Assembly (NCBI GenBank): GCA_965279375.1
Contig: OZ257156.1
Span: forward strand, 4,000,001-4,064,000
Direction: 5' to 3'
Source of the DNA: Gemmatimonas sp.
GTDB taxonomy: Bacteria; Gemmatimonadota; Gemmatimonadetes; Gemmatimonadales; Gemmatimonadaceae
DNA length: 64,000 nucleotides
The notes beneath the pieces were generated by a model. That model was not told the origin of the DNA, did not search any database, and saw nothing but the letters and a program-made list of their open reading frames with translations. The translations under genes were made by a program, and so were the position numbers. Of the stretch, positions 41,640 through 62,549 are shown in pieces. Position 1 is the stretch's first letter, and every line of letters begins with the position of its first letter.

Positions 41640-41698
41640 ACGTCGAGAACCCTCGAGTGTGATCCCGTCGCGACGCGGGGCGTCCACCATGGCGCGCC

Positions 41699-44188: not shown

Positions 44189-44467
44189 CTAGAACAGGGA
44201 CCGCGCGATAAGGTAGGCGATCAACACCCCCAGCAGACTCAACAACGAGACGTCCAGGGCAACGGGTCCAACCGCGAACTTCAATATAATCAAGTCGATC
44301 GGCAGCGGACCGATAGAGGGCGTGACGCCAGTCGTGAGAAATTCTTTGACCGCGCCCGCCGGGAGAAAACGCCGAGCCACTTGTGTGAGGAGCCCACCGG
44401 CGACGAAGCCGCTGGCAAGGACGAGCACATGAAACACCGGCCGGTGTTTCGAAGGTCCACGGGCCAT
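44189..44467 (-). CDS. Small membrane protein, DUF4321-like
   Basis: TM, then IDLIILKFAVG...VSLLSLLGVLIAY pattern; TGATG overlap with the upstream gene. Confidence 0.75.
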   Translation of the reverse strand: MARGPSKHRPVFHVLVLASGFVAGGLLTQVARRFLPAGAVKEFLTTGVTPSIGPLPIDLIILKFAVGPVALDVSLLSLLGVLIAYLIARSLF

Positions 44468-45471
44468 CACCAGCGCCGCTGCACGACGTACGAAATCGCG
44501 TCCACGAGGGCGGAACGGGCTGGGCTTTCGGGAAGGTCGGCGAGCGACTCCTCCGCTTCGCGCGCGAACTGATCTCCGCGACGACGGGCGTACTCGAGGC
44601 CACCGTTCGCCCGGACAATGCCGATCACCTCGGCGATGGCGTCGTCTTCGGGCTCGGTCGACGCGAACAACGCCTCGACACGTGTGCGATCGCTGCCGGA
44701 CATTTCACGGAGCGCGGCGATGAGTGGTAGCGTGACCTTGTGCTCCTTGAGATCGAGACCACCGGGCTTGCCGGTCATCTCCTGCCCTTCCGTGTAGTCG
44801 AGCAGATCGTCGGCCACCTGGAACGCCATGCCGAGACGTTCGCCGTAACGAACCAGCGCATCGCGGTGGCGCGGGGCGCCGCACAGCGCGCCTACGTCGC
44901 ACGCGGCCACGAAGAGCGAGGCCGTCTTGGCCCGAATGAGCGTTTCGTAGTCTCGCTCGGTGAATGCCAGCGCATCGAACGCGGAGAGCTGTCGCATCTC
45001 GCCGAGCGTCATCTCGTTGGAGGCATTGGTAATGGCACCCATCGCCTCGAGATCGCCGAGCCGCACGAGTTCGCGAAGTGCGCGAAGATACAGATAGTCG
45101 CCCATGATCACCGAGACCTGGTGACTGAAGAGCGAATTCACCGTGGGCATGCCGCGACGCAGCGCGGAGTGATCCACCGCATCGTCGTGCACGAGCGTCG
45201 CAAGGTGGATCAACTCAACCACCGCGGCATACGTGACGGCTCGTGGCTGCGACCGATCTTCCACGGCGCTCGAGAGGAGGAGCAGCGTCGGGCGAAAGAG
45301 TTTCCCCTTCATGCCCATCAGATGCTCCTGCACCTCCTGCACGAGCGGCACGTCGGCGGACACAATGCGCCAGAGTTCCTGCGACACCGCGCCGAGTTGG
45401 TGATGAATCGGCGACTGGATGTCACGGAGCGCGGCGGCGAGTGCCGTCGGAGTGCGAGTGGTCAGCGTCAT
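44467..45471 (-). CDS. Long-chain polyprenyl diphosphate synthase (IspB/HepT-like)
   Basis: GKLFRP, ELIHLATLVHDDAVD..RRG, GDYL, KTASLF, AFQVADDLLD, GKP, KVTLP. Confidence 0.93.
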   Translation of the reverse strand: MTLTTRTPTALAAALRDIQSPIHHQLGAVSQELWRIVSADVPLVQEVQEHLMGMKGKLFRPTLLLLSSAVEDRSQPRAVTYAAVVELIHLATLVHDDAVDHSALRRGMPTVNSLFSHQVSVIMGDYLYLRALRELVRLGDLEAMGAITNASNEMTLGEMRQLSAFDALAFTERDYETLIRAKTASLFVAACDVGALCGAPRHRDALVRYGERLGMAFQVADDLLDYTEGQEMTGKPGGLDLKEHKVTLPLIAALREMSGSDRTRVEALFASTEPEDDAIAEVIGIVRANGGLEYARRRGDQFAREAEESLADLPESPARSALVDAISYVVQRRW

Positions 45472-48400
45472 GACGCTACCTGCTCGAGCGCCGCCATTCG
45501 GGCGGCAACATCGCGGAAATTGATATCGGTGGCGTACACGCGCTGAAAATAGCTCCGAGCCTCACCCCACCGCTGCAGGGCTTCACACGAATATGCCAAA
45601 AGATAGAGCACTCCGATCCGCTGCTCGTCATTGAGCCCCGGCTCGTGCAGCGCCCGCGAAAGTACCGTTGCCGCAATCTGGAAGCGTCCCTGCTCCACGA
45701 AACATTGACCCAGCGCCTCGTACGCCGGTAGACGGTGCGCCTTGCTGCGTAGCGCCTTCTGGAACTCCGCGATGGCATCATCGAGCAATCCCATCTCCTT
45801 GAACGCTACCCCGAGATCGTACCGACTCTCGTAATCCTCCTCACCCAATGAACGCGAGACCCCCTCCTTGAAGTGCCTGAGGAGTGCATCAAAGTCCGCT
45901 TGTTCATCGCCGCTGACCTCCGGCTCCCGCATCCGCATACGCGTCGAGGCGGGAGCATCGTCGTCGCGGAGCCAGTCCGCGAGGTTGACGAAGCCTTCGG
46001 CGACGGGTGCTGCTACCGCCGTCGGCAATGGAGGTGCCGCCGAACCCAATGCCGCACGGGCGCGGTCGTCGCGAGGATCGATTTCCAGCACGCGCACGTA
46101 CACCGCCTGCGCCCGACCCTCCTCCCCGCTCCGTACCAACGTATCCGCGAGGTCAAGGTAGGCAAAGCGCAAGCGCTGCTGATCTTTCAGCCGGACGGCC
46201 AATTCCACCCGTTTCTGGTGATACGCCACCCGATCCGGGGAGATGCGCACCAACTCCTCCGACAAATCCGCTGCCGTCTCGAGCTGACCGCCTTGCGCGA
46301 ATCCGTTGAGCGACGCCTCCATCTCGGACAGTCCCGCGTCCCGCTGCCCGGCCTCGAAGAGCGCTTCCGCGAGCCGGCGGCGAAGCCCCCAGTCCTGCGG
46401 CTCGGCGGCCACGGCGGCGCGCAGTTCGTCGCGGCGGGAGAGGGCAACCTGCTTCGCTTCGGCGGCGACGGCTGCGATAGGCAGCGCCGGTGTGAGCCGA
46501 ACGGCGGACCGCACGGCGATCGGCGCCGTCTCAATTGGCGCGTCAACCGCGTCGATGATGGAAGAATGGAGCGGAGTGGCGGTGCGATCGGCGTGGCTCT
46601 CCGATTCGCTCGCGACACCACCGTTGTCCGCGATCGCATCGGAGGCAACCAATTCGGAGCTGGCTGACTCCGTCGCGGTCGCGGGTACCGCCGCGAGCGC
46701 GTGCGCTGGCGTCGGGAGCGCCTCGGCATCCGTCTCCGCAGTCCGCGCGTCGGAGGTCGGCGCGGACTCGGGTTCGTCCGCTCCGTCTGCGGCCTCGATA
46801 CTCGTGGCCGAGCCGAACTCGATCAGCTCGGACGCACTGGCGGGGTCCGCGGCGACGTCGAGTTGGGCCTCGTCGTGGACGGGGGCCTCGCCGACGAACG
46901 CCAGCTCCTGTGGCGCCCTTACGACCGCGGTTGATTCGACGATCGATGATTCGACGATCGATGATTCGTCGCTCGCGAACTCGACGTCAGCTGTCAAGGC
47001 AGCCGTTCCGGGCGCGACGGGCGTGCGCAGCGACGCGATCGCAATCGGCGTCGGCGTCGGCGTCGGCGTCGTGGTTACGGGCGTGGTGACTGGCGTGGCG
47101 ATCGGCGTGGCGATCGCCGCCTCCGCTCGCGCGTGCGCGGCGGCTGCGACGTCGGCGGCCGCGACTTCGGCGAGTTCGTGCTCGACCGCGCGGTCAAGGC
47201 CGGCGTTGACCAGATCGTCATCGACGAGAAGCGGGGGTAGCTCTCCCGGGAGAATGAAATCGTGTGGATCGAGTCGGTATGGCGGACGACGCTGCTGCGT
47301 GGTGGCGTCTGCCGCCATGCGTGCGACCAACTGCGCACCCGCCTCGATGGCCGCTTCGATCGACGGGATTTCGAGCGACCGCAACGGCGTGCGACTGGGT
47401 GTCCGGCTCGCGCTCCGTACGGGCGTAGGCGTAGCGCGACGCGGGACCTCAGGCATGGCCGATGCCGGCGTGGGTGCCGCAGCGACAACATCGACTGGCG
47501 ACGACTCGGCAGGCCGCGAGTGCTCAGTCGCCGCATCGGAATCGAGGGCATCAATCGCCGGCACGTCCACATCCGACGCACCGAAGTTCGAGGCCGTGTC
47601 AGCCTGCTCTGCAACGTCCGCAGGAGCGTCGGCGGACGTCTCGAACGACGACCCAAGGCCCTCACCGAGTGATTCGGCGACCGAGTCCACGGTGGACGAA
47701 GCGATTGGCGTCGGGATCGACGAGGGAGTCGCATGAGCATCGCTGACAGCGCCAGCGGCGAAACTCGCGATGAAGTCATCGTCCGAGTCCGCGTCTGCCG
47801 TCGAGTCGGATTCGTCGGCGGCTGAGACGTCCGTTGGGACGTCCATTGCGAGATCGCCGAAGACATCCGATACGACATCCGATGCGACATCCGATGCGAC
47901 ATTCGATGCGACATCCAACTCATCGGTGCGCGCCGCCCACTCCGCAGGGGGCATCGTCTCAGACAGCTCGGGCGCGTCTGACACATGCGCGGACTCCGCG
48001 GACGTCTCTTCGACCAGCGAGATGACGTCCGACGCCAAGTCCTCGTCGAAGGCCGTCAATTCGAGTTCGATCGCCGAGGTTGGCTCGTCGGTCCATTCGA
48101 TCAGCGGAAGTTCGATCGGCTCGAGATCCAGCAGCGGCAACGGAGACGATTCCTCGTCGTTGCCCTCCGTGTGCTCCAGCGACGCCGTATCGAATTCGAT
48201 GAGGTCCAGCGCACCCAGCTCGGCGGATTCATCCGGCAGATCCGCCATGACGTCGTGCTCGAACGCCAGCTCGTCTACCGCGCCGTCCGCCTCGGTCAGC
48301 TCGATGAACGGAAGCGAGCGCGCGACCGCGGGTGTAGGGATCGCAGTGCTCGGCGCAATCGGCGTGGGGTGCAGCGGGGCCGAGTCCGCGGACTCCGTGT

Positions 48401-49055
48401 TGCTGCGCGTCGAATAGGGCGGCGTACGACGCGCATTCGTGGCGCCGTAGTCCACCTCGAGGAAGACGAGATTCGACGACTTGTCGCTCTGATAGCGCGG
48501 CGAATCCGAGTCGGGAATGACTTCCGACGCCAATGGCGTCCGACGGCGTGGCAGCTGGACGCCGGCCCGCGCCGCATGCTCTTCGACGAGGCGGCTGACT
48601 TCGGTCAACTCCGGCATCAGCTCCGCGACTTCGCTCAGCGCGCGCATCGCTTCCTCGACGCGGCCTTCCTGCTGCATGCGCGCGGCGTACTCCAGGAAGT
48701 TGCGCGTCGCGTCACCACGCAGGCCCTTCTTGCCACAGATTCGTCCCAGCGTGAAGTACACGTTGGACCGACCGGGCGCATTGCGCAGGATCTTGTTGCA
48801 GAGCGCGATGGCGTTGTTGAAGAGGCCAGCGGTGGCGTAATGCTCTACCGCACGCTCGTAGTAGGTCACCGCGTCGGGCACTCGTCCCTGACGCAGCGCG
48901 AGGTCGCCCACCTTGTTCAGCAGCGCGACGTCAACGTCCTCGCCCTCAGACTCGCTCTCTTCGATCGCGCGAACGTACGACGCGATGGCCCGGTCGATCT
49001 GTTTCAGCTGCTCGAATTCAGCCGCTTTTTTCCGGTGCTTCGCGGCGTTGGACAT
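45468..49055 (-). CDS. Giant TPR protein with acidic disordered core (1195 aa)
   Basis: N-terminal TPRs (LLNKVGDLALRQG, NNAIALCNKILR), about 700 aa low-complexity core, C-terminal TPRs including DYESRYDLGVAFKEMGLLDDAIAEFQKA and DINFRDV. Confidence 0.88.
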   Translation of the reverse strand: MSNAAKHRKKAAEFEQLKQIDRAIASYVRAIEESESEGEDVDVALLNKVGDLALRQGRVPDAVTYYERAVEHYATAGLFNNAIALCNKILRNAPGRSNVYFTLGRICGKKGLRGDATRNFLEYAARMQQEGRVEEAMRALSEVAELMPELTEVSRLVEEHAARAGVQLPRRRTPLASEVIPDSDSPRYQSDKSSNLVFLEVDYGATNARRTPPYSTRSNTESADSAPLHPTPIAPSTAIPTPAVARSLPFIELTEADGAVDELAFEHDVMADLPDESAELGALDLIEFDTASLEHTEGNDEESSPLPLLDLEPIELPLIEWTDEPTSAIELELTAFDEDLASDVISLVEETSAESAHVSDAPELSETMPPAEWAARTDELDVASNVASDVASDVVSDVFGDLAMDVPTDVSAADESDSTADADSDDDFIASFAAGAVSDAHATPSSIPTPIASSTVDSVAESLGEGLGSSFETSADAPADVAEQADTASNFGASDVDVPAIDALDSDAATEHSRPAESSPVDVVAAAPTPASAMPEVPRRATPTPVRSASRTPSRTPLRSLEIPSIEAAIEAGAQLVARMAADATTQQRRPPYRLDPHDFILPGELPPLLVDDDLVNAGLDRAVEHELAEVAAADVAAAAHARAEAAIATPIATPVTTPVTTTPTPTPTPIAIASLRTPVAPGTAALTADVEFASDESSIVESSIVESTAVVRAPQELAFVGEAPVHDEAQLDVAADPASASELIEFGSATSIEAADGADEPESAPTSDARTAETDAEALPTPAHALAAVPATATESASSELVASDAIADNGGVASESESHADRTATPLHSSIIDAVDAPIETAPIAVRSAVRLTPALPIAAVAAEAKQVALSRRDELRAAVAAEPQDWGLRRRLAEALFEAGQRDAGLSEMEASLNGFAQGGQLETAADLSEELVRISPDRVAYHQKRVELAVRLKDQQRLRFAYLDLADTLVRSGEEGRAQAVYVRVLEIDPRDDRARAALGSAAPPLPTAVAAPVAEGFVNLADWLRDDDAPASTRMRMREPEVSGDEQADFDALLRHFKEGVSRSLGEEDYESRYDLGVAFKEMGLLDDAIAEFQKALRSKAHRLPAYEALGQCFVEQGRFQIAATVLSRALHEPGLNDEQRIGVLYLLAYSCEALQRWGEARSYFQRVYATDINFRDVAARMAALEQVAS
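46932..46968. repeat. In-frame 15-bp tandem repeat (ESSIV x2.5)
   Basis: tgattcgacgatcga x2 + tgattcg. Confidence 0.8.
47862..47916. repeat. In-frame 12-bp tandem repeat (VASD-type x4.5)
   Basis: gacatccgatac/gacatccgatgc/gacatccgatgc/gacattcgatgc/gacatcc. Confidence 0.8.
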
Positions 49056-49139: not shown

Positions 49140-50396
49140 TCAGCCCCTCGCGGAACAAGCGTTCCCGCGTGCCCACGCCACTCGACAAAGACGCTCGCCG
49201 AACCAGTAAGGCAACGCGCGATAATCGTCTACGGCATGCACGGCGATGTCTGCGCTGAATCCCGGTGCCAGCTGTCCGGTTTGCTGCGCCAAGCCGAGTG
49301 CCGCAGCGCCGTTCACGGTCCCCGCAATCCACGCTTCGGCTGCCGACATGCGCAGCTCGCTGACCGCGAGCGTGAGAATGAGTGGAAAAGACTGCAGCGG
49401 AGACGTACCCGGGTTGAGATCGGTGGCAAGCGCGACTGCCGCGCCCGCATTGATCAAAGCGCGTGCCGGCGCCTGCCGTCCGGTGCCAAGAAAGAGCATC
49501 GTCGCCGGCAATAGCGTCGCCACTGTGTCAGAAGCGGCCAATGCTGAAACGCCGGACGCAGAGATGGCCGCAAGGTGATCTGTCGAGACAGCGCCGAGGG
49601 ATGCACCGAGCGCTGCACCACCGCCGTCGTGCAACTCGTCCGCGTGCAGTTTGGCGTGCAGGCCGAGCGACTGGGCTGCGGTCAGGAGCGTGCGAGTTTC
49701 GTCGAGCGTGAAGACGCCGGGCTCGCAGAACACGTCGGCAAACGCGGCCAGGCCCTCAGCGGCGACCTGCGGATAGATATCGTGGGTGATCTCCTCAATC
49801 CATGACGCGCGTCCGTTGGGCAGGTCGCGTCGATCAAAGGGGATCTCGTGCGCAGCAAGACAGGTGGCGACGATGCGCTGCTGGTTGCGCGCCGCCAAGC
49901 GTGCGATCACGCGCAACGTGCGCAGTTCATCGTGCGTGGACAGCCCGTAACCGGACTTGATCTCCACCGTGGTGACACCGCCCGCCGCCAGCTTTTCGAG
50001 ACGAGGCAGCGCGAGCGCGAAGAGTTCATCGTCACTGCGCGCGCGCAGGTCACGCACGGAGGAGTGAATCCCGCCACCGCGTCGCGCGATTTCGAGGTAC
50101 GGCACGCCTGTGGCACGCAGCTCCTGCTCCTCGTAGCGAGCCTTGCCGAACACCGTGTGCGTATGCGAATCAACGAAGCCCGGCGCGAGCAACCCGCGGT
50201 CACAGTCGATCTCGTTCGCGTCGGGATACGATCGACGCAGCGCCTCATCCGACTCAACCGCCACGATGCGATCGCCATCGACGGCCACGCCCACACCGCT
50301 GCGCACAGCCGCGTCCTGCATCTCTGCGCCGCGTCGCGCACGTGCCGGACCCTCGCAGGTGACGGTCTGCGCTGCGTTGACGAAGAGTGTGATCAT
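49140..50396 (-). CDS. hutI: Imidazolonepropionase
   Basis: PGFVDSHTH, GGGIHSSV, EIKSGYGL, DVFCE, KLHADE, STDHL, ALATDLNPGTSP. Confidence 0.96.
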   Translation of the reverse strand: MITLFVNAAQTVTCEGPARARRGAEMQDAAVRSGVGVAVDGDRIVAVESDEALRRSYPDANEIDCDRGLLAPGFVDSHTHTVFGKARYEEQELRATGVPYLEIARRGGGIHSSVRDLRARSDDELFALALPRLEKLAAGGVTTVEIKSGYGLSTHDELRTLRVIARLAARNQQRIVATCLAAHEIPFDRRDLPNGRASWIEEITHDIYPQVAAEGLAAFADVFCEPGVFTLDETRTLLTAAQSLGLHAKLHADELHDGGGAALGASLGAVSTDHLAAISASGVSALAASDTVATLLPATMLFLGTGRQAPARALINAGAAVALATDLNPGTSPLQSFPLILTLAVSELRMSAAEAWIAGTVNGAAALGLAQQTGQLAPGFSADIAVHAVDDYRALPYWFGERLCRVAWARGNACSARG

Positions 50397-50418: not shown

Positions 50419-51393
50419 CTACGCCATCACGTCGCGCACGCGGGACATCAGCCGGAGCGGCGCCTGCGCTTCGCCACGACACGCATAGTAGCAGGAATTG
50501 CAGTTGATCGGCTCGTAGCCCTTGTAGTCCTGCCACGGCCCATCGGCCGGAAAATCAGGGCAGCGCCGCACCAAACCTTGCGGATCGATGTGGATGGTGG
50601 TGCTCCCGCTCAGACACGGCTCGGTCATCTCGCCGCGCACGTATCGCGGGATCTGCTCGAGGTAGTAGTCCGAGTTGGTGATGACGCCACGCTTGCGCTG
50701 CTTGTACGCCAACAGCTGCGCAACCACGCGCTCCAAATCCGCCTGCTGCTGAGCGCCCACGAGATAATCCGTGTTGCCGTTCTTGAAGTCGGTGTAGAGC
50801 GAGAAATTCACGCCGCCACCCAACGCCGCAGCACGCTCGACGATCGGGAGAATCTGATCGAGGTTGTCGTTCTTGATGACGGTGTTGAAGCGTACGCTGC
50901 CGATGCCCGCCGCCTTCATGCGCGGCACGAGATCAAGAATCTTGGCCGACAGGCCGGGAATGCCACGTGCCGCATCGTGGCGCTCATCGAGATAGTCGAG
51001 CGAGATGTTGAACTGATCCACGCCGGCATCCCACAACGACTGTGCGCGCTCGAGCGACAGCATGGCACCGTGCGTAATGAGCTGCACGTAGGTGAGACTC
51101 ACCGCCTGGCGCACACCGGCCACGATGGCCTCGAGATCCTTGCGCAACGTGGGCTCGCCGCCTGTGAACGTGACCAGCATCGGCGAGAACTTTCGCGCGA
51201 TCTCGGCGAACTGCGCCACCTCGGTGTCACGCGTATCGCTTGGCGTCTTCCAGTAGTCGCAAAAGCCGCAGCGTGCGTTGCAGCGCATCGTCACTTCGAA
51301 ATTGAGCAAGACAGGACGACGTCGCGCGCGCAGCCAGGCGTACTTGCCGAGGAACAGCGGAACGTGCCACGGTCGGTATCGACTCGATAGCAT
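50419..51393 (-). CDS. Radical SAM protein with Twitch/SPASM-like Cys-rich tail, function unknown
   Basis: EVTMRCNARCGFC (CX3CX2C), FTGGEPTLR, ISLD, HDAARG; tail PC...IDPQGLVRRC...CNSCYYAC. Confidence 0.92.
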   Translation of the reverse strand: MLSSRYRPWHVPLFLGKYAWLRARRRPVLLNFEVTMRCNARCGFCDYWKTPSDTRDTEVAQFAEIARKFSPMLVTFTGGEPTLRKDLEAIVAGVRQAVSLTYVQLITHGAMLSLERAQSLWDAGVDQFNISLDYLDERHDAARGIPGLSAKILDLVPRMKAAGIGSVRFNTVIKNDNLDQILPIVERAAALGGGVNFSLYTDFKNGNTDYLVGAQQQADLERVVAQLLAYKQRKRGVITNSDYYLEQIPRYVRGEMTEPCLSGSTTIHIDPQGLVRRCPDFPADGPWQDYKGYEPINCNSCYYACRGEAQAPLRLMSRVRDVMA

Positions 51394-53120
51394 CAGGTGG
51401 TGGAATCGAGCGATGCAGCGTGCAGCACGTCGCGGTTCACGTCGGAATTGAGCTGAAGCATGGGAAGGTGCAGCCCTTCGCGGGCTGCGGTCGCAATGGC
51501 GATCTCGTAACCGGCGTCGGCGTGGCGCGCGACACCGATGCCGGGATCATTCGTGAGCACGCGCTCCAACCGGCGGCGCATACGCTCGGAGCCGTCTGCG
51601 ACGATAACCTGCCCCGCGTGCAGCGAGTTCCCGATGCCAACCCCACCGCCGTGGTGGAACGACACCCACGAGGCACCGCTGGCGACATTCAGCAGCGCGT
51701 TGAGGATCGCCCAGTCCGCGATGGCGTCGCTGCCGTCGCGCATTCCTTCCGTCTCGCGAAACGGCGAGGCCACGCTTCCCGTGTCGAGATGATCGCGTCC
51801 GATGACAATGGGCGCCGACACTTCACCACGCGCGACAAGATCGTTGAGCGCGAGCGCAAGACGTGCGCGGTCACCCTGCCCGAGCCAGCAGATGCGCGCG
51901 GGCAATCCTTGAAACGCGATTCGCTCACGCGCCAGCGTAATCCAGCGCTTGAGCGGTGCATCATCCGGAAACATCGACAGTACCAGCTCGTCGGTGCGAT
52001 GGATGTCGGCCGGATCGCCACTCAGGGCGACCCAGCGAAACGGCCCCTTCCCCTCGCAGAAGAGCGGACGGATGTATTCCGGCACGAAGCCCGGAATGCG
52101 AAACGCGTCGTCGAGCCCCGCATCGAACGCGACGGTGCGAATGTTGTTGCCGTAGTCGAAGGTGACCGCGCCGCGGTCCTGCAGCGTGCGCATCGCACGC
52201 ACGTGCTCCACCACCGACGCGGTCGCGCGCGCGATGTACTCGGTCGGATCGCTGGTACGCAGCTGCGCGGCCGCGTCGAGCGTCATGCCCTGCGGCACGT
52301 AACCGACCAACATGTCGTGCGCGCTGGTCTGATCGGTCAGGACATCCGGCACAACGCCGCGGCGAACGAGTTCAGGGAGAATCTCTGCGGCATTGGCACA
52401 CAGCCCCACCGACAGCCCAACGCGGCGCTCCTGCGCGTCGCGCAGCCAAGCGAGCGCCTCGTCGAGCGAATACGTCATCCGGTCGCAGTAGCGTGTGTCG
52501 ATGCGCTTCTGAATGCGCGTCGGGTCGACGTCGATGCCGAGCACTGCCCCGCCCAGCATCGCGGCGGCCAACGGCTGCGCGCCGCCCATGCCGCCCAGTC
52601 CTGCGGTCACCACGAGACGTCCATCGAGCGTGCCATCAAAGTGCCGCGCAGCGACGGCCGCGAATGTCTCGAACGTCCCCTGCACGATGCCCTGCGACCC
52701 GATGTAAATCCACGAGCCGGCCGTCATCTGGCCGTACATCGTCAGCCCCAACTTCTCGAGGCGACGGAATTCCGGCCACGTGGCCCAGCGCCCGACAAGA
52801 TTGGCATTCGCCAACAGCACGCGCGGTGCATCCACATGCGTGCGAAACACCGCCACGGGCTTGCCGCTCTGCACCAGCAACGTCTCATCATCGGCGAGGG
52901 TGCGCAGCGTATCCACGATGGCGTCGAACGCCTCCCACGAACGCGCTGCACGTCCGGTCCCGCCATACACCACGAGGTCGTCCGGACGCTCGGCGACTTC
53001 CCCGTCGAGGTTGTTCATGAGCATGCGAAGCGCGGCCTCCTGCTCCCACCCCTTGCACGAGATCGTGGCACCGCGAGGCGCGCGCACTGGCCGTGGACCG
53101 CTCACGTGAGCCTCGCTCAT
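51393..53120 (-). CDS. hutU: Urocanate hydratase
   Basis: [66 protein letters not shown]. Start at ATG 53120. Confidence 0.98.
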
Positions 53121-54640
53121 GACACGACTCCTTGAACGACAGGTTCGAGCGCGCCAGCGGCGATGGCGCTGCCGAGCCGCATGATGTCCGGCGAGGGTGG
53201 CCGATCGCCCGAGGCGCGCGGCACGTACTGGCGAATGATCGCGTGCGCCTGCTCCAGCGCGGCTGTCGTGCGCAACGGCCGGCGATGCTCGATGCCTTCC
53301 GTCGCTGCGATCAGTTCGATGGCGATCACATGCCGCAGATTGCGCACGCTGCGACGCAGCTTGGTGGCCGCACCCATCGCCATCGGTACGACGTCTTCCT
53401 TGTTGCCGTCGGTTGGTATCGAGTCGACACTGGCCGGATGCGCGAGCGTCTTGCACTCGCTCGCCAACGCAGCCGAGGTCACCTGCGCCATCATGAACCC
53501 CGACTCGAGCCCCGGTGACGCCGCGAGGAACGGCGGAAGTCCCTGGTTAAAGTCCGGATGCACCAGCCGGTCGGTGCGGCGTTCGCTGATCACGGCGAGA
53601 TTGGCACTGACGATCGAGAGAAAGTCCGCCACCATCCCCACGGCCTGCCCGTGGAAGTTGCCGCCGCTCAGCAACTCTCCCGACGCAAGCACGAGCGGAT
53701 TGTCAGTGGCCGCATTCAGCTCTCGCTCGATGATCCCATGCGCGAACGCGATCGCTTCATACGCGGGCCCGTACACCTGCGGCGAGCACCGGAGCGCGTA
53801 CGCGTCCTGCACACGCGGATCGCCATGCCGATGCGATTCGCGAATCTCGCTCTCACCAAGCAGCCCACGCAGCAGCGCGGCGGATCGTTGCTGGCCGAGC
53901 TGCCCACGCGCGTCCTGAATGCGCGCGTCGAAGGCATCGGGAGTGCCGAGTAGTGCCTCCAGGCTGAGCGCTGTGGCCACGTGCGCTGCACGCCAAAGAC
54001 AATCCAACTCATGCCACGCGAGAGAGGCGATCGCCGTGTGTGCCTGTGTGCCGTTGATGAGCGCGAGCCCTTCCTTGGCCTGCAGCACGACAGGTTCGAG
54101 ACCGGCAGCGCGTAGCAGCGTTGATGCGGCATCCACGCGACCACCGTGGTTGGCCTCGCCCTCACCGATCAGCGCCAACGCGAGATGCGCGAGCGGTGCG
54201 AGGTCGCCACTCGCGCCCACGCTTCCCTGCTCCGGCACGATCGCCCAGATGCCGGCGTTGAGCATGCCGAGCAGCGTTTCCACGACCTCGGCGCGCGCGC
54301 CAGCGAAGCCCGTGGCAAGCACATTCGCGCGCAGCAACATCATCGCGCGGACTTCGCGCTCCGGCAGCGGATCGCCCACACCTGCCGCGTGACTGCGCAC
54401 GAGATTGCGCTGCAGCGCATCGAGCTGGGCGTTGGGAATCGTCACTTCGGAGAGCTTGCCAAAGCCCGTATTGACGCCGTACACCGGCACGCCTGCCAAC
54501 ACTGCGCGGTCCACGACACCGCGCGTCTGCACCATGCGCGCGCGCGCATCGGGGGCGAGATCCACACGGCGATGGTGGTCGGCCACCGCGACGAGGTCCG
54601 CGACACGCAGCGAACGGCCATCCAGCGGAAGAGAAGTCAC
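53117..54640 (-). CDS. hutH: Histidine ammonia-lyase
   Basis: [20 protein letters not shown]-forming [42 protein letters not shown]. Confidence 0.97.
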
Positions 54641-54688: not shown

Positions 54689-57600
54689 TCAGAAGCTGCT
54701 TTGCCGGTACGTCTGGCGATCGTAGTTGAACTTCAACTCAGGCTGGGCCTTGAGCGCGATGAAGAAGTTGAACGAGAAGTTGCCGTTGGGTGCCTGCGTG
54801 AACGCAAAGACCGCGTTCCAGTCATGCAGCTGACGTTGCAGCCCCACCTGCTGACTTGCAAACCGGTTGCGCTCCACATCGTACTGCGTGGACCATTGCG
54901 CCGACCAGTTCTGCGTGATGTTGAAGGTCAGCGCCGAGGTGACGTTCTGCGTGGGCGGAGAGATGAACACAGGCGCGCCGATCGCGCTCTGTCCGGTGGT
55001 GAGCCCCGTCGCCGGTGCGTTCTGCGCCTGGAAAATACAGTTGTCATAAGCCGACAAGCCAAAGATCCGCTGCGACTCGCAGAGCGTTGCCGGGTCGTTC
55101 TTGATTTGCGTTCCGCCTCGCGGTGGTCGCTGTCTCGCCGCGTTGTACTGAAGGTTGAGACTCCAGCCGGCGCCGGTGGGAATGCTCGCCTGCATGCCAC
55201 GCATACTGCCACCCGCCGCGTTCATCTGGCGTGACTGACGCGCGATGTTCTGCTCGTTCGCGTTCACGGGGCGACGCGGATCGGTGGACGGCGCTTCAAG
55301 CACGGGCGACTTGCCCAACAGGCGCCCAAGCACGGCAAAGATGCCCGACTTGCCGTTGAGCGAGAACGAGACTCCGATGTCGGTGCGGTACGGGCTGAAG
55401 GTCGCCGTATCGGAGAGCGGATCACCTTGGAACAGCTCGTACGACGTGCGGAAATCGAGACCGGGCAACAGGTCCGTGTTGCCAGAGATCGAGAAGGTGC
55501 GATCGGTGAAGCCCTTGCCCGTGGAGTCGGCGCGCACGAAGTCGTACGTGAGCGGCGAGAAATTGAGCGAGAGCAGCTTGATCTTGCGGAGATTCTCCTT
55601 GCCTTCCCCACCCAAGCCACCGCCAGCGATCGGTTCATCGCCGTTGCCACGCGCCAAGTCGCCCGACTCGACGCCACTACGTCCGGCCGATGTATCCACC
55701 GGCACGACGCTACCCTTGATCTTGGCTTCGATGTTGGTGGCGAAGCCGAGCGAGACGCGGTTCTGCTTGAGCGCGCCGAGGTAGCCAACGCGCGTTCGTC
55801 CGAGTGCCGCGAGATACTCGTCGCTGACGGAGGCCTGCGGCGAGTAGCTGAAGCTGACGTTGGGTGAAACGGTGTGCCGGAAGCGCTGAATCGGCCCTAC
55901 GCCGGGGAACTGCGCGTAGAACGTCGGCGAGGCGCCAATCGCGTAGCTGAGTCGCTTGGCCTGCTGCACCCATTGCCCGCCACTCCGCTCGGTGCGCACC
56001 CACAGTCCCGAAGCACCGTCGACGTTGGCCACGTTGACCGTCGGTGAGACGTTCCAGCTCCCCTGGAAGAAGCGCGGCAGATTGAACGACGTCGTCCAGT
56101 CCGCGTTGCTTTCGAAGGTGCGCGCAAAGATGCGGGTGAACTTCTGCGAGGTATCGCGCACGCCGATGATTTCGCGCTGCTCGGGATAGTCGTTGACGCG
56201 CTCGGTAATGCTGAACGAGTTCTGCCAGATGAAATCGCCGAGCTTGAGCGGCGTATCGAACGCGAAGTTCATGTTGCGTCGGCCGGCATTGAACCTCGTA
56301 CTGTCGATGCCGCCGCGCCCGTTCGAGTTGTACACGTACGGAAACTGGAGCCCCTGATCGATCTTGGAGTTCGTGCTGACCGCGAGCCGCATGGTCGGCG
56401 TCCACGTGAAGCGCTCACTGCCCAGCGAGCCTGCCGTCACGTTGACAGACGGGAACTCCATGTCCACCTGCGAGCGTCCCGGATACTGCACGCGAGATCC
56501 GCCGATATTGATCTGCGCGGGACCGACCTTGGTCTGATAGCTGAGCTGCGAGCGAATCGTGGCATTCGCCGCGACCGGATTGATCGTCGTCGCGCGCTGC
56601 ACCGTGGTGCTCTGCACCCAATTCAGGCGCGCCGTGAGTCGCGTCTGCTTGGAGAAATCCTGGTTGTGATTCCAGGTGATCGATGTGTTGGTGGTGCCGT
56701 TGCGCTGCGCGATGTACGAAACCGCTGTCTCGCCGTTGATGAATCGGTTGAGCCACTTATACCGATACTCGATATTGCTGCGCAGATAGCCGGGGTCGTT
56801 GTCCGTCGAGCGCGCGGCGCTGCGCCAATCGAACGACGCTTCCGCGTTCATGTAGTCGTTGATGGCAAAGAAGTAGCCCATGTTCGACACGCTGCGACGA
56901 TACGACGGGCTGTTGCGCAGCAATTCGGCGATGCCGAAGTTGGGCGTCAGCAAGCCACTGCGACGACCACGTCGCACATCCTGGAAGAAGAACGGAATCC
57001 AGAAGACCGGCACTTCACCGATGTAGAGCACACCCGGGCGCGCCACCATCACGTTCTCCGAGATGAACTTCATGTCCCGGGTGGTGAAGTGGAAATGCGG
57101 CTCTTCGTGATCGCAGTAGGTGAACGACCCGTTCTTTGCGAAAATGATGTGCTTCCCTTCCACCAGCGAATCCGTGCTGATCGCACTGCGTTCGGCGGTC
57201 AGGTACAAGCGCTGCCCAGAACTCACCGACGTGGAGAACGCGCCGGTGATGCCCTGCTTGGTCTCGGTGTCGTAGTCGATGCGACCGCGTGCGACGAAAT
57301 CGTCCGCGTCGGGCTGCGACGGGTCGCGCAGCACGACCGTATCGCCGGTGGCGACGACGCGCTTGGTGGAGTCGCTGTAGGCGATCGTGTCGCCGATGAG
57401 CATCGTCTGGTCGCGCTTGACCGCCGACGGCTTGCCGCGAATGCGCAGCTCCTTGGTACGCGCGTCGAACACGACGACATCGCCCTGGTACTGGACCGTG
57501 CGGTATCCTTTGCGCTCGAGGAGCTCCTTCATCGCCGAGTCAGGCTGCGCCCACTCGAAGATGGCCTTCTCGCTGTGAAGCGCGCGGACCGTGGTGTCGG

Positions 57601-57736
57601 GACGACCGCCCGGCTGCGCGCCCGTGCGGTTGGGCACCGGCGGTCGCGGGCGTTGAGCGGCAGCAGGGACGGCGACGAGCAGAGCACACGGCAGCAGCTG
57701 TCGCGCCAGTCGCGCTACGCGAGTCAGCAAAGCCAC
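54689..57736 (-). CDS. LptD-like LPS-assembly outer-membrane protein
   Basis: Signal peptide (PAAA-Q); OstA-like N-domain ending GSFTYCDHEEPHFHF, PVFWIPFFF...RRSGLLTP, GYFFAINDY; beta-rich C-terminus. Start set at GTG 57736. Confidence 0.8.
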   Translation of the reverse strand: MALLTRVARLARQLLPCALLVAVPAAAQRPRPPVPNRTGAQPGGRPDTTVRALHSEKAIFEWAQPDSAMKELLERKGYRTVQYQGDVVVFDARTKELRIRGKPSAVKRDQTMLIGDTIAYSDSTKRVVATGDTVVLRDPSQPDADDFVARGRIDYDTETKQGITGAFSTSVSSGQRLYLTAERSAISTDSLVEGKHIIFAKNGSFTYCDHEEPHFHFTTRDMKFISENVMVARPGVLYIGEVPVFWIPFFFQDVRRGRRSGLLTPNFGIAELLRNSPSYRRSVSNMGYFFAINDYMNAEASFDWRSAARSTDNDPGYLRSNIEYRYKWLNRFINGETAVSYIAQRNGTTNTSITWNHNQDFSKQTRLTARLNWVQSTTVQRATTINPVAANATIRSQLSYQTKVGPAQINIGGSRVQYPGRSQVDMEFPSVNVTAGSLGSERFTWTPTMRLAVSTNSKIDQGLQFPYVYNSNGRGGIDSTRFNAGRRNMNFAFDTPLKLGDFIWQNSFSITERVNDYPEQREIIGVRDTSQKFTRIFARTFESNADWTTSFNLPRFFQGSWNVSPTVNVANVDGASGLWVRTERSGGQWVQQAKRLSYAIGASPTFYAQFPGVGPIQRFRHTVSPNVSFSYSPQASVSDEYLAALGRTRVGYLGALKQNRVSLGFATNIEAKIKGSVVPVDTSAGRSGVESGDLARGNGDEPIAGGGLGGEGKENLRKIKLLSLNFSPLTYDFVRADSTGKGFTDRTFSISGNTDLLPGLDFRTSYELFQGDPLSDTATFSPYRTDIGVSFSLNGKSGIFAVLGRLLGKSPVLEAPSTDPRRPVNANEQNIARQSRQMNAAGGSMRGMQASIPTGAGWSLNLQYNAARQRPPRGGTQIKNDPATLCESQRIFGLSAYDNCIFQAQNAPATGLTTGQSAIGAPVFISPPTQNVTSALTFNITQNWSAQWSTQYDVERNRFASQQVGLQRQLHDWNAVFAFTQAPNGNFSFNFFIALKAQPELKFNYDRQTYRQSSF

Positions 57737-57740
57737 TGCG

Positions 57741-58505
57741 TCACTCGTCCAGCGCGGCCATGCGCTTTTCACGACGGTTATAGATCACGCGCGAAAGCGT
57801 GATGGAGACTTCGTACAGAAAATACAGCGGCACCGTCAGCGCGAAGAGCGACGTCGGATCCTGGCCCGGCGTGATCACGGCCGCGGCGATGATGCAACCG
57901 ACGAATGCATGCCGGCGAAACTTCGCAAGGAACTTGGGCTGCACGATGCCGAGTGCCGTGAGCAGCACGATCACGATGGGCAGTTCGAACACCGCGCCGA
58001 ACGCGAGACACATCGCCAGCACGAACCCGAAGTATTCGTGCACCGTCAGCACCGACTCGACCGACGCGCTCTGGAAGCCGAGCAGGAAGCGCAGCGTCAC
58101 TGGCAACACGTAGTAGAACGCCAACGCCATACCGGCCAGAAACAGCATGGCCGCGCCCATCAACGCCGGAATGACGACCTTCTTCTCGTGCCCGTAGAGC
58201 GCCGGCGACAGGAAGCCCCAGATCTGCCAGACGATCACCGGTGACGCGAGTACGAGCCCGATCGCGATCGACGCATCCATGACGATGTTGAACAGATCGC
58301 TGGGATGCGTCACCATCAACGGACGCTTGAGGAACGGCTGCACCGGCTGCGACAGCAGCCCGATGATGTCGATCTGCTTGCTGTACAGCAGCGCGAACGA
58401 ACCGATCACCCCGATCGCGACGGCCAGTGCGATCCGGAACAGCCGCCACCGGAGCTCCTCGAGGTGATCGAGGAACGGCATCTCTGCTTGCTGCTGCGTG
58501 GCCAT
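57741..58505 (-). CDS. tatC: Twin-arginine translocase TatC
   Basis: EMPFLDHLEELRWRL, WQIWGFLSPALYGHEK, FGAVFELP, AAVITP. Confidence 0.96.
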   Translation of the reverse strand: MATQQQAEMPFLDHLEELRWRLFRIALAVAIGVIGSFALLYSKQIDIIGLLSQPVQPFLKRPLMVTHPSDLFNIVMDASIAIGLVLASPVIVWQIWGFLSPALYGHEKKVVIPALMGAAMLFLAGMALAFYYVLPVTLRFLLGFQSASVESVLTVHEYFGFVLAMCLAFGAVFELPIVIVLLTALGIVQPKFLAKFRRHAFVGCIIAAAVITPGQDPTSLFALTVPLYFLYEVSITLSRVIYNRREKRMAALDE

Positions 58506-58546
58506 CGGAATGCGAGAGGTCTGGGGCGAACGTGAACGGCCGCGCG

Positions 58547-59413
58547 TCAGCGCAGCGTCTTGAGCTGATCGGCAGCCGTCACGGCTTCATCGCTGCGCGG
58601 ATAGCGGGCGATCACCTGCTCGAACAGTTCGCGCGCCTTGGCGCTGTTGTTCTGCTGCAGAAAAAGCATCGCGCGCTTGTACACCGCCGTCGGCGCCTTG
58701 GGTGCATTAGGATACTTGGAGACGACTGCCGCGTAGGCCGCATCGGCGGCAGCCACCTGCTTCTCCCGCGAGAACGACTCCGCAATCCAGAACTGCGCGT
58801 CGGGGGCCTCTTCCGCGTTGGGATAATTGGTGAGCAGGTCCTGAAACAGAATGCGCGCGGTGGTGCTGCTGCCACGCGTCAACTGATCTCGTCCGCTCTG
58901 GTACAACTCACTCGAACTTGGGATGCGAGTCGGCGTGGTCGGTGCGGGGTTGGCTCCCGGCGTCGTGCTGGGTGCGGCACCTGCCCCAGTTGCGGTCGGC
59001 GGCACGGTGCCCGTCGGCGGAACGGTCGGAGCCATCGGCATGGCGCTCGCGCGCTCGGCAAGCTCTGCGCGCAACCGTGCGATCGTCGCTTGACTCTGGC
59101 CCAGCAGCTGCTGGATCTGCAGCAGCTGTTCCTTGATCGCGCGCGTTTCACCGCGCACATCGCCCTGAATGTTCACCGTGCGCGCGCTCACCTGCGTCAG
59201 CGAATCGGTCGCCGTCTGCAGCAGCTTCATCGCCTGAGCCAGCGCCGCGCGTTCGTCGCTGTTGGCCCGAGACAATTCCGCGCGCAGCGAGGCGATGTCG
59301 GTCTGCACGAGGCGGACGTCGCTACGCGTCGCGAAGCAGCCGCCCGCCGCCACGAGAGCGGCGAGCGGGACCACGCGCAACATCCGCACAGCGAACGTCT
59401 GAGGCTGCATCAC
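58547..59413 (-). CDS. cpoB: Tol-Pal system protein CpoB/YbgF (lipoprotein signal)
   Basis: Follows pal; lipobox AGGC, coiled coil, TPRs with YPNAEEAPDAQFWIAE and VIARYPRSDEA. Confidence 0.88.
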   Translation of the reverse strand: MMQPQTFAVRMLRVVPLAALVAAGGCFATRSDVRLVQTDIASLRAELSRANSDERAALAQAMKLLQTATDSLTQVSARTVNIQGDVRGETRAIKEQLLQIQQLLGQSQATIARLRAELAERASAMPMAPTVPPTGTVPPTATGAGAAPSTTPGANPAPTTPTRIPSSSELYQSGRDQLTRGSSTTARILFQDLLTNYPNAEEAPDAQFWIAESFSREKQVAAADAAYAAVVSKYPNAPKAPTAVYKRAMLFLQQNNSAKARELFEQVIARYPRSDEAVTAADQLKTLR

Positions 59414-59973
59414 TTGGCGCGGAGCTGATCGCCGCCGGCGATGATCTCGAACTCATCGCGACGGTTCTTGGCCCACGACTCTTCCGACTCGCCCTGCACA
59501 GCCGGACGCTCGCGACCGAAGCTGGCCGTCTCGATACGCGATGCATCGACGCCGCGATCGGTCAGGAACTTCTTGGCGATTTCGGCACGACGACGGCCGA
59601 GCGCGATGTTGTACTCATCGCTACCGCGCTCGTCGCAATGTCCGGAGATGCGGACCTTGAGCTGCGGGTTGCGGTTGAGCAACGGCAGCTTGGCTTCGAG
59701 CGTGGCGCGCGCGTCGTCACGAAGTTCGTCCGCGTCATACTCGAAGTAGATCGTTTCGAGGAGCTTCGCTCGCGCCGAGGCGATCTCTGCGCGAATCGCT
59801 TCCATCGTATCGACCGGCGTCGCCGTCGTCGTCGGCGTCCGCGGCGGAGCGGCCGGCTGCGTGGCCGGTGGGGTCACCGGCGGCGTCACCGCAACGACCG
59901 GCTTCTTGCGGCAGGCGCCGAGGATGAGCGGAGTTGCGACGAGCACCAGCATCAGACGAGACGAACGGATCAT
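59410..59973 (-). CDS. pal: Peptidoglycan-associated lipoprotein Pal
   Basis: Lipobox LGAC; IYFEYD, GHCDERGSDEYNIALGRRRA, SFGRERP, KNRR. Confidence 0.96.
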   Translation of the reverse strand: MIRSSRLMLVLVATPLILGACRKKPVVAVTPPVTPPATQPAAPPRTPTTTATPVDTMEAIRAEIASARAKLLETIYFEYDADELRDDARATLEAKLPLLNRNPQLKVRISGHCDERGSDEYNIALGRRRAEIAKKFLTDRGVDASRIETASFGRERPAVQGESEESWAKNRRDEFEIIAGGDQLRAK

Positions 59974-60015
59974 GTGAAGCGACTCCGGATTCAGGTGGAG
60001 AGAAACGAACTGCGA

Positions 60016-61329
60016 TCAGGGCGTGCCGAGTCGTGGAGACCACGCAGAGAGACGAGCGCTCGCTGGCATCTTGAGCTGCCGCGTACGACCGGACTCCGTG
60101 TCCACGACCCACAACTGACGGATACCGCTGCGATTCGACGTGAAGACGAGATGGCGCGAGTCGGGTGCCCATGACGGGTCTCCGTTTCGTCCATCGCTCG
60201 TGATCGTGCGCGTCGACTTGTCGCGCACATTCACGGTCATGATCTGGAACGTCCCGCCGTTGAGCGATTCGAAGGCGACCAGACGCCCGTCGGGAGACCA
60301 GTCCGGTCCAGCCCGATAGTTCCGGTCACCGAATACACCGTCGGTGAGCTGCTCCACGTTCGTGCCGTCGAGATCGCAAATATAAACCTCGTTATGGCCG
60401 GAGCGGTCTGACGCGAACACGAGGCGCTGACCATCCGGACTGAAGGACGGGGCGAAGCTCGCACGACCGCGCCCGACGGTCACACGCACCGCTTGGCCGC
60501 CGGCGTAGGGCATGCTGTACAGATCGGCCCCCGCATCGGACACGCGGGAAAACACCACGGTCCGACCGTCGGGAGACACGGCGGGCGTGCCGTCCTGTGC
60601 TGTTGCGGGCGAGGTCAGTGTGCGCTGCGCGCCGGTGGCCAATTCGGTGACGAACAGCGGATCGCGACCGGTGAGGACGTTGTAGACAATTGCGCGTCCC
60701 GACGGATGCCACGCGGCGGAGAGACCCGCCGGGGTGACCGGGCGCGCGTTGGCGCCATCGCTGTCCACCACCCAGATGCGTCGATCGCGCTCGAACGCGA
60801 TCTGCGACTGCGCGATCCCGCGCTGAAAGGTGATCCACTCCTCGATGCCGTCCGACACGCCGTGCAGCGCCATGCGCCACGCAGGGGTACCGGCGGGATT
60901 CGGAAGCGGGAAGTCCTTTTGGTTGACGACGGCCTTCTTGGAGACGTCGTGCAATGCCACGCGAAGCCAGCCCGATGCCAGCACGGTCGCCTGCACGACG
61001 CCATCGACGCCCAGTTTGGCCATCACCGGATAGTTCGGCGGGCCGTTGCTGGCGGGCGCAGAACCCGTGGGCACAACGGTGAAACGATCGCTGTAATCGA
61101 GGTCGCGCGAGATAATCGTCGCGATCGAATCGCCGGTGGCCCCACTGATGGGCAACACGAGCATCGACGGGCGCTGACTGCCACGTACCTGGATGCCCAG
61201 TCGCACGCCGGGGTCCTGCGCGAGCAGTGGCGTCGATGGCGCGAGGAGCAGGCCGGCCAGGAGCGCGCTCGTGCGCAGCAGGGCTGCGCGGCCACGCGCC
61301 GCGGCCATCACGGACAGCGAACGATTCAC
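60016..61329 (-). CDS. tolB: TolB family beta-propeller protein
   Basis: ISRDLDYSDRF N-domain and PD40 repeats (PAVSPDG, PSFSPDG, PDWSPDG, PSWAPDS); directly upstream of pal. Confidence 0.9.
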   Translation of the reverse strand: MNRSLSVMAAARGRAALLRTSALLAGLLLAPSTPLLAQDPGVRLGIQVRGSQRPSMLVLPISGATGDSIATIISRDLDYSDRFTVVPTGSAPASNGPPNYPVMAKLGVDGVVQATVLASGWLRVALHDVSKKAVVNQKDFPLPNPAGTPAWRMALHGVSDGIEEWITFQRGIAQSQIAFERDRRIWVVDSDGANARPVTPAGLSAAWHPSGRAIVYNVLTGRDPLFVTELATGAQRTLTSPATAQDGTPAVSPDGRTVVFSRVSDAGADLYSMPYAGGQAVRVTVGRGRASFAPSFSPDGQRLVFASDRSGHNEVYICDLDGTNVEQLTDGVFGDRNYRAGPDWSPDGRLVAFESLNGGTFQIMTVNVRDKSTRTITSDGRNGDPSWAPDSRHLVFTSNRSGIRQLWVVDTESGRTRQLKMPASARLSAWSPRLGTP

Positions 61330-61344
61330 AGCTGGATCACAGCG

Positions 61345-62133: not shown

Positions 62134-62543
62134 CGCGCCGACTCCGGCTCCGCGACCAGGCCCACGTCGGAGATCCCGCTGGCGCGCATCGCGGCGACCA
62201 CGCGCACCACGATGCCGTAGGGCACCGCCGCATCGGCGCGCAGGTACACGCCGCCGCCGCCCTTCTTTTCCGACAGCGCCTTGATGCCGCGCGAAAACTC
62301 GTCGAAGGAGAACTTGACGTCATCGATGAAGATGTAGCCATCGCGGTCCACCGTGACGACCAGACCGTTCTTCGACTCGAGCGGGCGCACGTTCGCCTTG
62401 GGCAACGCGATGTCCACACCGCCCTGCATGATCGGTGCGGTGATCATGAAGATCACCATCAGCAGCATCATGACGTCGATCAGCGAGACCACATTGATCT
62501 CGCCGTTCACTCCCATGCGCTCTCGGCGCCGGCGCATCCGCAT
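62130..62543 (-). CDS. tolR: TolR/ExbD family protein
   Basis: EINVVSLIDVMMLLMVIFMITAP, LRADAAVPYG. Confidence 0.92.
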   Translation of the reverse strand: MRMRRRRERMGVNGEINVVSLIDVMMLLMVIFMITAPIMQGGVDIALPKANVRPLESKNGLVVTVDRDGYIFIDDVKFSFDEFSRGIKALSEKKGGGGVYLRADAAVPYGIVVRVVAAMRASGISDVGLVAEPESAR

Positions 62544-62549
62544 GCGCGG

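Follow-up and report, generated by a model that had tools for sequence, protein, structure and literature searches.

A radical SAM gene between hutU and hutI of Gemmatimonas: probable passenger of a histidine-utilization operon, putative tailor of lipid head groups

The window analysed here, a stretch of 64,000 nt from Gemmatimonas sp. (assembly GCA_965279375.1, contig OZ257156.1, positions 4,000,001 to 4,064,000), carries an uncharacterised Twitch-type gene of the radical S-adenosylmethionine (SAM) superfamily, hereafter rSAM, between the histidine-utilization (Hut) genes hutU and hutI. Very probably rSAM is a passenger in the hut operon and does not act on histidine. Its putative job, somewhat likelier than not, is the radical tailoring of the polar head group, cyclitol or sugar, of a membrane lipid.

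The open reading frame has the start codon, coordinates, cysteines and length given by an earlier reading of the sequence alone (the original prediction). Cysteines 38, 42 and 45 form the CX3CX2C motif, and cysteines 260, 278, 298, 301 and 305 lie in the C-terminal part. Orthologues, 61-88% identical and without internal stops in 66 of 69 other Gemmatimonadaceae genomes, and a structure model of pLDDT 93.3 and pTM 0.91 establish that rSAM is a real gene. Both of its junctions, re-read, are as predicted: its start overlaps the hutU stop (TGATG at 51395-51391) and its stop is followed after 22 nt by the hutI start. The start of hutU at 53120 overlaps hutH in turn (ATGA). The hut genes and rSAM belong to a same-strand run of 16 genes in the order epimerase, tolQ, tolR, tolA-like, tolB, pal, cpoB-like, tatC, lptD, hutH, hutU, rSAM, hutI, tetratricopeptide repeat (TPR) protein, polyprenyl synthase and DUF4321 (Table 1). 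Overlaps occur at eight of the 15 junctions and the largest gap is 84 nt, with two of the start codons chosen by the analyst. As packing is tight along the whole run, the stop-start overlap of hutU and rSAM is not specific to Hut. Probably rSAM is co-transcribed with the hut genes. A scan for promoters and terminators returned 0 promoters and 11 terminator-like sites, versus 9.9 by chance, none of them between hutH and hutI on the coding strand.

Table 1. Genes of the run around rSAM and the inositol genes of the same genome
Feature	Position	Strand	Evidence and remarks
Uncharacterised Twitch-type radical SAM gene (rSAM)	50419..51393	(-)	324 aa, ATG start, CX3CX2C + C260/C278/C298/C301 (and C305), candidate auxiliary-cluster ligands
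hutH, histidine ammonia-lyase	53117..54640	(-)	TIGR01225 628.6 bits, cut-off 539; neighbour, not partner
hutU, urocanate hydratase	51393..53120	(-)	TIGR01228 922.7 bits, cut-off 375; stop overlaps rSAM ATG
hutI, imidazolonepropionase	49140..50396	(-)	TIGR01224 392.7 bits, cut-off 298
lptD-like outer-membrane assembly gene	54689..57772	(-)	PF19838; upstream backbone gene, still adjoins rSAM where hut left (synteny)
tatC, cpoB-like, pal, tolB, tolA/TonB-like, tolR, tolQ, NAD-dependent epimerase	57741..63958	(-)	Pfam; upstream envelope part of the gene run
Large TPR protein	45468..49055	(-)	Pfam, synteny; downstream backbone gene
Polyprenyl diphosphate synthase + DUF4321 membrane protein	44189..45471	(-)	Pfam, synteny; end of the gene run
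Phosphatidylinositol-phosphate (PIP) synthase-like gene + myo-inositol-1-phosphate synthase (MIPS)	G000:C1:4112260-4114211 (L235 12258-14212)	(-)	

Two readings of this position had been put forward in the original prediction, a variant Hut pathway and an unrelated passenger. The former drew on the absence of hutF and hutG beside the cluster, and a search of the complete one-contig genome indeed found no match over cut-off for HutF, HutG or FGase anywhere, the best HutG-like match being an agmatinase. No HutC passes its cut-off in the genome either. A complete glutamate formiminotransferase-cyclodeaminase (FtcD), a folate-dependent alternative to HutG, is encoded elsewhere (341.5 bits, cut-off 221; three FTCD domains), so that the missing HutG/HutF step is covered. 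With HutH, HutU, HutI and FtcD all over their cut-offs, the Hut pathway as predicted here has no hole. It resembles Hut ending in FtcD (TIGR02024) and differs from it by the missing HutC and by hut genes embedded in an envelope gene run. The score of HutU is much higher for urocanase than for the thiourocanate hydratases. The FtcD gene (G000:C1:2878826-2879713, L001) is far from hut, directly after an inositol-monophosphatase-family gene.

In favour of a variant Hut pathway, rSAM lies between hutU and hutI in 52 of the 66 Gemmatimonadaceae genomes examined (counting this one), the hutU-rSAM gap is at most 30 nt in 34 of 53 loci (a few negative values are alignment artefacts), and the conservation of rSAM is close to that of the Hut enzymes (median identity 67% versus 63-78%). 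Synteny largely refutes it. Across Gemmatimonadaceae and sister-family loci, the comparison of rSAM with the hut genes gave INDEPENDENCE in both directions. The Gemmatimonadaceae are represented by family f1 of a sample of 301 Gemmatimonadota genomes (f1 clusters in a tree with records named as members of that family), and 65 of its 66 other loci were compared. The order hutU-rSAM-hutI is found in 51, and three are interrupted by contig ends. Eleven loci, spanning six genera, keep rSAM without hutU and hutI beside it, as lptD-rSAM-TPR (8/65) or hutH-rSAM-TPR (3/65), and three relocated hut operons read hutH-hutU-hutI without rSAM. One genome (G264) has rSAM and no hutU match. In the other direction, hutH-hutU-hutI is still in the backbone of G088 and G098 and rSAM is gone; both are lost from the backbone of G236. 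The sister family f2 has tatC-lptD-hutH-hutU-hutI-TPR-polyprenyl-DUF4321, with hutU directly before hutI and no rSAM, in 10 of 14 hutU loci. None of the 40 hutU loci examined alongside has an rSAM match. A fusion of hutU with rSAM is absent from the 65 f1 loci; two candidates, P0245 and P0262, were rejected, as they hold only partial pieces of both genes at 47-64% identity and are probably frameshift artefacts. The sister family also has a conserved gene for a lipoprotein-like protein of ~390 aa between lptD and hutH (L123 10858-12024, with equivalents in L126, L130 and L153), which is absent from the window.

Distribution leads to the same conclusion. Named homologues of rSAM are from Gemmatimonas, and orthologues of at least 61% identity are confined to f1 among the 301 genomes, the other 32 matches being 27-32% identical. 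As 67 of the 70 Gemmatimonadaceae genomes examined, this one included, carry it, rSAM is a near-core gene of that family. By profile, the rSAM family occurs in 119 of the 301 phylum genomes and hutU in 268: 104 have both, 164 have hutU only and 15 have the rSAM family only, 13 of the latter belonging to family f10, where all 13 genomes have a distant rSAM copy and no hutU. The two are unassociated (p 0.46; kin are not independent). One unpublished genome, G156, enters these counts once and bears on no other result. Beyond the Gemmatimonadaceae, 474 relatives were confirmed in a scan of GTDB genomes; the best 80 of the 474 loci were analysed and 17 of the Gemmatimonadaceae clade set aside. In the flanks of the 63 outside loci (up to 7 kb, with many contigs shorter) hut genes occur in none, so that the tabulation of neighbourhoods proposed with the original prediction leaves the outside relatives unlinked to hut. 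Collectively, the departure of hutU and hutI where rSAM stays, the loss of rSAM where hut stays, the sister family without rSAM, the outside loci and the presence of FtcD argue against a variant pathway and for the passenger, the second reading of the original prediction.

The simplest history has rSAM inserted between hutU and hutI at the base of f1 and kept with the backbone afterwards; rSAM would thus have entered an existing cell-envelope super-operon in the Gemmatimonadaceae ancestor. The hut insertion is ordinary gene-order history. A quick tree groups the Gemmatimonadaceae clade with copies from Acidobacteriota, Latescibacterota and Desulfobacterota (support 86 and 93). A single clade with the other Gemmatimonadota copies is not rejected by the approximately unbiased (AU) test (44 rows, p 0.19; one Desulfobacterota-sample row inside the second Gemmatimonadota clade was kept with that clade). 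Therefore, arrival of rSAM by transfer and by relocation are both compatible with the data.

The sole Pfam match of rSAM is the core domain PF04055 (85.6 bits, cut-off 29.5); PF13186 (SPASM) gives no match at 1e-3. In an alignment of 137 family rows, C38, C42 and C45, the GGE motif and E33, T35, R84 and N177 are invariant. C260, C278, C298, C301 and R306 are found in 136 rows and C305 in 116. Of the five C-terminal cysteines noted in the original prediction all are present, but near-invariance is limited to four, and these conserved ligands suggest one candidate auxiliary cluster. The comparison of the C-terminus with Twitch/SPASM enzymes was sound, since the top structural matches are of this type, and rSAM is a member of the SPASM/Twitch subclass of the radical SAM superfamily. 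The closest fold is that of BlsE (Z 24.6, rmsd 3.0, 275 aligned residues, 18% identity; VIA-align), followed by SkfB (21.8), SuiB (20.9) and MoaA (20.4), with PqqE also among the top matches and alignments reaching residue ~300-322. Foldseek concurs (BlsE, E 1.9e-15, TM 0.70). Sequence searches of the PDB returned generic matches only.

None of the best 25 NCBIfam models has its cut-off passed by rSAM. Scores and cut-offs in bits are 69/500 for AhbD, 51/650 for AhbC, 47/515 for NirJ, 87/284 for MoaA, 76/381 for PqqE, 58/450 for Tes, 89/306 for PTO1314, 43/180 for viperin and 42/400 for BlsE, and membership in each of these families was rejected. The PTO1314 family (TIGR03961), the best-scoring one, goes unmentioned by name in the literature covered. 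Placement in a characterised family such as HpnH or AhbC/D, which the original prediction had envisaged, was not found: rSAM falls below each of these cut-offs and into its own clade. As read from these models, the rSAM family is a Twitch-type family covered by no curated model. In the full-text literature covered, which leaves most subscription journals and supplements outside, no paper came up as describing the family, a radical SAM gene in a hut operon or inositol lipids of Gemmatimonas; PMC12904256 yielded no passage that bears on them.

HpnH, the adenosylhopane synthase (TIGR03470, PF11946), deserves separate mention. It is similar to rSAM in size, in an N-terminal helix before the core, in the pattern C..C..CxxCxxxC and in lipid-pathway neighbours, and the ESM atlas lists HpnH/DUF3463 clusters for rSAM at 0.97. 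However, rSAM scores 51.3 bits on TIGR03470 against a cut-off of 225 and has no match to PF11946 (DUF3463), on which a true HpnH scores 187 bits. In a quick tree, five HpnH form their own clade on a branch of length 4.4 and the 137 family rows another (SH-like approximate likelihood ratio test 99). The complete own genome has no tblastn match for a squalene-hopene cyclase. Among outside carriers (50 of 63 genomes searched), 22 encode a separate HpnH over cut-off, 26 have a cyclase and 24 have no match for it. A role of the family as an HpnH substitute in hopanoid clusters was also rejected, as most carriers that encode a cyclase also encode an HpnH of their own. The original prediction had likened the N-terminus to that of membrane-associated HpnH; the hint at a membrane fits the neighbourhoods of relatives, but the protein is not HpnH. 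The N-terminal helix itself gave no sign of membrane binding, its hydrophobic moment over residues 8-24 being low (0.15-0.24) and that of the C-terminal helix higher (0.62-0.66).

The family is scattered through Myxococcota, Desulfobacterota, Acidobacteriota and Latescibacterota, where its neighbours are often lipid genes. A protein with an LPG_synthase_TM domain occurs in 29 of the 63 outside loci, and MIPS, an NTP transferase or a CDP-alcohol transferase in 14. At least one of 11 lipid markers is found in 44, and the same queries match nine of 354 tiles of the own genome; these counts are indicative only. The pattern itself recurs in separate clades. Myxococcota have the order rSAM-LPG_TM-PMT_2, and Latescibacterota have TolC-IPCT/DIPPS-MlaC-MMPL-rSAM with no cyclase match. 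In Desulfobacterota the order is hpnH-(MIPS)-HAD-NTP transferase-ATP-grasp-aminotransferase-dehydrogenase-CDP-alcohol transferase-LPG_TM-TolC-MMPL-rSAM. Distant copies in Gemmatimonadota adjoin VTT/DedA proteins (7/15 loci, and 3/5 more) or lie near LolA and IMPase. Family members are also fused to an IPCT-like domain (P0145) and to a VTT/DedA domain (P0207). In two Desulfobacterales loci (L284 5557-19246 and L285 801-16995) an hpnA-like gene precedes hpnH, and the cassette includes a class III aminotransferase and a GFO dehydrogenase; it is a candidate for making an aminocyclitol-phosphate head group linked to hopanoids.

Inositol genes accompany many carriers. MIPS is present in 45 and hutU in 23 of the 50 outside carrier genomes. 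In a Desulfobacterota-centred sample of 201 genomes, MIPS occurs in 7/7 rSAM carriers versus 121/201 overall, with three of the seven carriers known beforehand and 11 candidates scored per genome. In the own genome, MIPS is directly preceded, in one operon, by a PIP-synthase-like gene (163 bits, cut-off 170), which is distinct from the PgsA-, PssA- and Cls-like paralogues. A PIP-synthase-type match at E<=1e-20 exists in each of the 118 phylum carriers tested (including the own genome), in four of them only by a distant paralogue below cut-off. Among 21 MIPS-negative genomes (one unlisted genome taken to be G017 from the family tally), PIP synthase occurs in 9/9 carriers versus 3/12 non-carriers (p 0.001; kin are not independent). 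Genome G088, 99% complete, has no match for rSAM, MIPS or PIP synthase. The presence of MIPS in 280 of the 301 genomes suggests phosphatidylinositol synthesis throughout Gemmatimonadota, on which searching of full-text literature turned up no paper.

The radical SAM core, the four conserved cysteines, the BlsE-like fold, the neighbourhoods of relatives and the inositol-lipid genes of the genome are the grounds on which tailoring of a lipid head group is proposed. Inositol specifically as that head group is a more tentative suggestion, about which doubt prevails. With the same reserve, the family may be pictured as B12-independent enzymes rewriting the inositol head of phosphatidylinositol-type lipids into a deoxy-, keto-, epimerised or ring-contracted cyclitol. 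The CX3CX2C cluster would cleave SAM, and the 5'-deoxyadenosyl radical would take a carbinol hydrogen from myo-inositol or a related cyclitol or sugar. The substrate may be phosphatidylinositol(-phosphate) or a CDP-activated precursor at the inner membrane face. One auxiliary [4Fe-4S] cluster on C260, C278, C298 and C301 would steer the radical or handle the electron. Flipping or export of the lipid would follow an oxidation to an inosose, a 1,2-diol dehydration, an epimerisation or a ring contraction.

Radical SAM chemistry on cyclitols and sugars has precedents in BtrN, SpeY and BlsE. BlsE, of blasticidin S biosynthesis (PDB 7VOB/7VOC; TIGR04466), acts on a sugar ring by diol dehydration. 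It is the best structural match of rSAM and of similar length; it differs by an identity of 18-19%, by its model score far below cut-off, and in that rSAM is a single-copy near-core gene without a secondary-metabolite cluster. Precedents on lipid head groups are the radical SAM enzymes Cds (calditol synthase) and HpnJ, to which, in the passages of PMC13459092 consulted, knockouts assign the making of cyclitol heads of membrane lipids, for which a ring contraction is proposed. No sequence-level membership of rSAM with either was found: Cds enters the comparison by description only, and HpnJ has a B12-binding domain (in the L196 copy) that rSAM lacks. An alternative cytidine diphosphate (CDP)-inositol lipid cluster of Bacteroides vulgatus and Prevotella comprises, as far as the consulted parts of PMC9246714 describe it, MIPS, an NTP transferase, a CDP-alcohol transferase, a HAD protein and a lysylphosphatidylglycerol-synthase-type gene, and the same set surrounds the Desulfobacterota relatives of rSAM. 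By contrast, 'radical SAM' has 0 occurrences in the full text of PMC9246714, and the inositol route of Gemmatimonas consists of a PIP-synthase-like gene plus MIPS, unlinked to rSAM.

Several observations weigh against the tailoring of a lipid head group, and of inositol in particular. At 18% identity to BlsE, a common fold is no proof of common function, and outside relatives are only about 30-45% identical, so that function may have diverged. The lipid markers were picked post hoc from the same loci in which they were counted, the queries for the background were taken from other phyla, numerous loci are related to each other (about 20 of the Myxococcota clade), and 19 of the 63 have no marker. 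The Desulfobacterota clusters are also hopanoid-linked. In the Gemmatimonadaceae, rSAM lies next to no inositol or flippase gene, MIPS being ~61 kb away in the own genome. MIPS is near-universal and not enriched in carriers (110/119 versus 170/182, p 0.82), and as a phylogenetic-profile partner of rSAM inside Gemmatimonadota it was discarded as uninformative. The figure of 118/118 for PIP synthase has no full background, as most MIPS-positive non-carriers were outside the search. Seven f1 genomes keep rSAM without MIPS, by clean deletion or with a remnant in the six loci examined. In four carriers the PIP synthase beside MIPS is deleted, and what is left is a paralogue of 36-39% identity, which scores best on inositol-phosphate synthase models, though below cut-off. 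G098 and G236 lost rSAM and keep the inositol genes, which leaves G088 as the only informative co-loss.

Among other substrates for a passenger, a soluble sugar, nucleotide sugar or cyclitol (a capsule, glycoconjugate or compatible-solute precursor), or an unrelated cofactor or protein, is unlikely though worth keeping in view. BlsE, the nearest in fold, bears the name of a cytosylglucuronate enzyme, Myxococcota copies lie with PMT_2 glycosyltransferases and an asparagine-synthase-like gene, and the outside loci without a lipid marker are compatible with such a substrate. Enzymes of the IPCT/DIPPS type also make soluble di-myo-inositol phosphate, according to the consulted parts of PMC9246714. 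Against this stands the recurrence of flippase- or scramblase-type neighbours in separate clades: LPG_synthase_TM in Myxococcota and Desulfobacterota, VTT in other Gemmatimonadota including the fusion, and MMPL/MlaC in Latescibacterota and Desulfobacterota. More doubtful still is an action on the hydrocarbon part of a membrane lipid or isoprenoid, by HpnH-like adenosyl addition to an olefin, by cross-linking, or on a polyprenyl or quinone substrate. The ESM clusters and the C-terminal CxxCxxxC would fit it, HpnN-like MMPL, MlaC and TolC flank relatives (MMPL in 10/82 loci), and in 60 of 65 f1 loci the second or third gene downstream encodes a polyprenyl synthase, as does a gene near two Latescibacterota copies. 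That synthase, however, belongs to the backbone in genomes without rSAM too, and the long branch to HpnH, the separate HpnH of many carriers and the missing cyclases speak against the idea. A variant Hut pathway, with rSAM acting on histidine, urocanate, imidazolone-propionate or a modified histidine, is very improbable in view of the closed pathway, the two-way synteny, the want of a fusion and the f10 genomes.

This does away with a tempting false lead: nothing at this locus points to a radical branch of histidine catabolism. What remains is a radical SAM family without a curated model, near-core in a bacterial family of which cultured hosts exist. Should the tailoring of inositol lipids prove true, a class of membrane lipid not yet described would exist in abundant bacteria of soil and fresh water, and head-group chemistry on bacterial glycerophospholipids would be added to the few known cases (Cds and HpnJ). 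Such tailoring could also account for polar lipids that are still unassigned in these bacteria, and could provide a biomarker for the lineage.

Minor observations concern inositol genes, other radical SAM genes and the window itself. Five Gemmatimonadaceae genomes have deleted the PIP synthase beside MIPS, and each of them encodes a second paralogue of inositol-phosphate-synthase type, often close to an acyltransferase (L327-L333, L335-L339); this paralogue is present in only three of the other 55; functional replacement is possible. Two genera lost MIPS, cleanly or with a remnant, and keep PIP synthase (L313-L316, L318, L319), which would imply inositol uptake. A different radical SAM protein, fused to a CDP-alcohol phosphatidyltransferase, is encoded divergently from an rSAM-family member at L177 4160-6577 (-). 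In family f9 (L324 7300-10770, L325 7482-10974), a distant member is followed by a second radical SAM gene with a zinc-ribbon (HMPTM) domain, among nucleotide-sugar genes. Yet another uncharacterised radical SAM gene lies near or directly after MIPS in Calditrichota-type genomes (L287 4440-5606 (-), L288 212-1378 (-)). In the window, the TPR protein at 45468-49055 (-) and a protein at 38928-41690 (-) are both large and combine a TPR-like N-terminal region with long, acidic linkers of low complexity; the former weakly resembles SgmX of Myxococcus (55.6 bits, far below cut-off).

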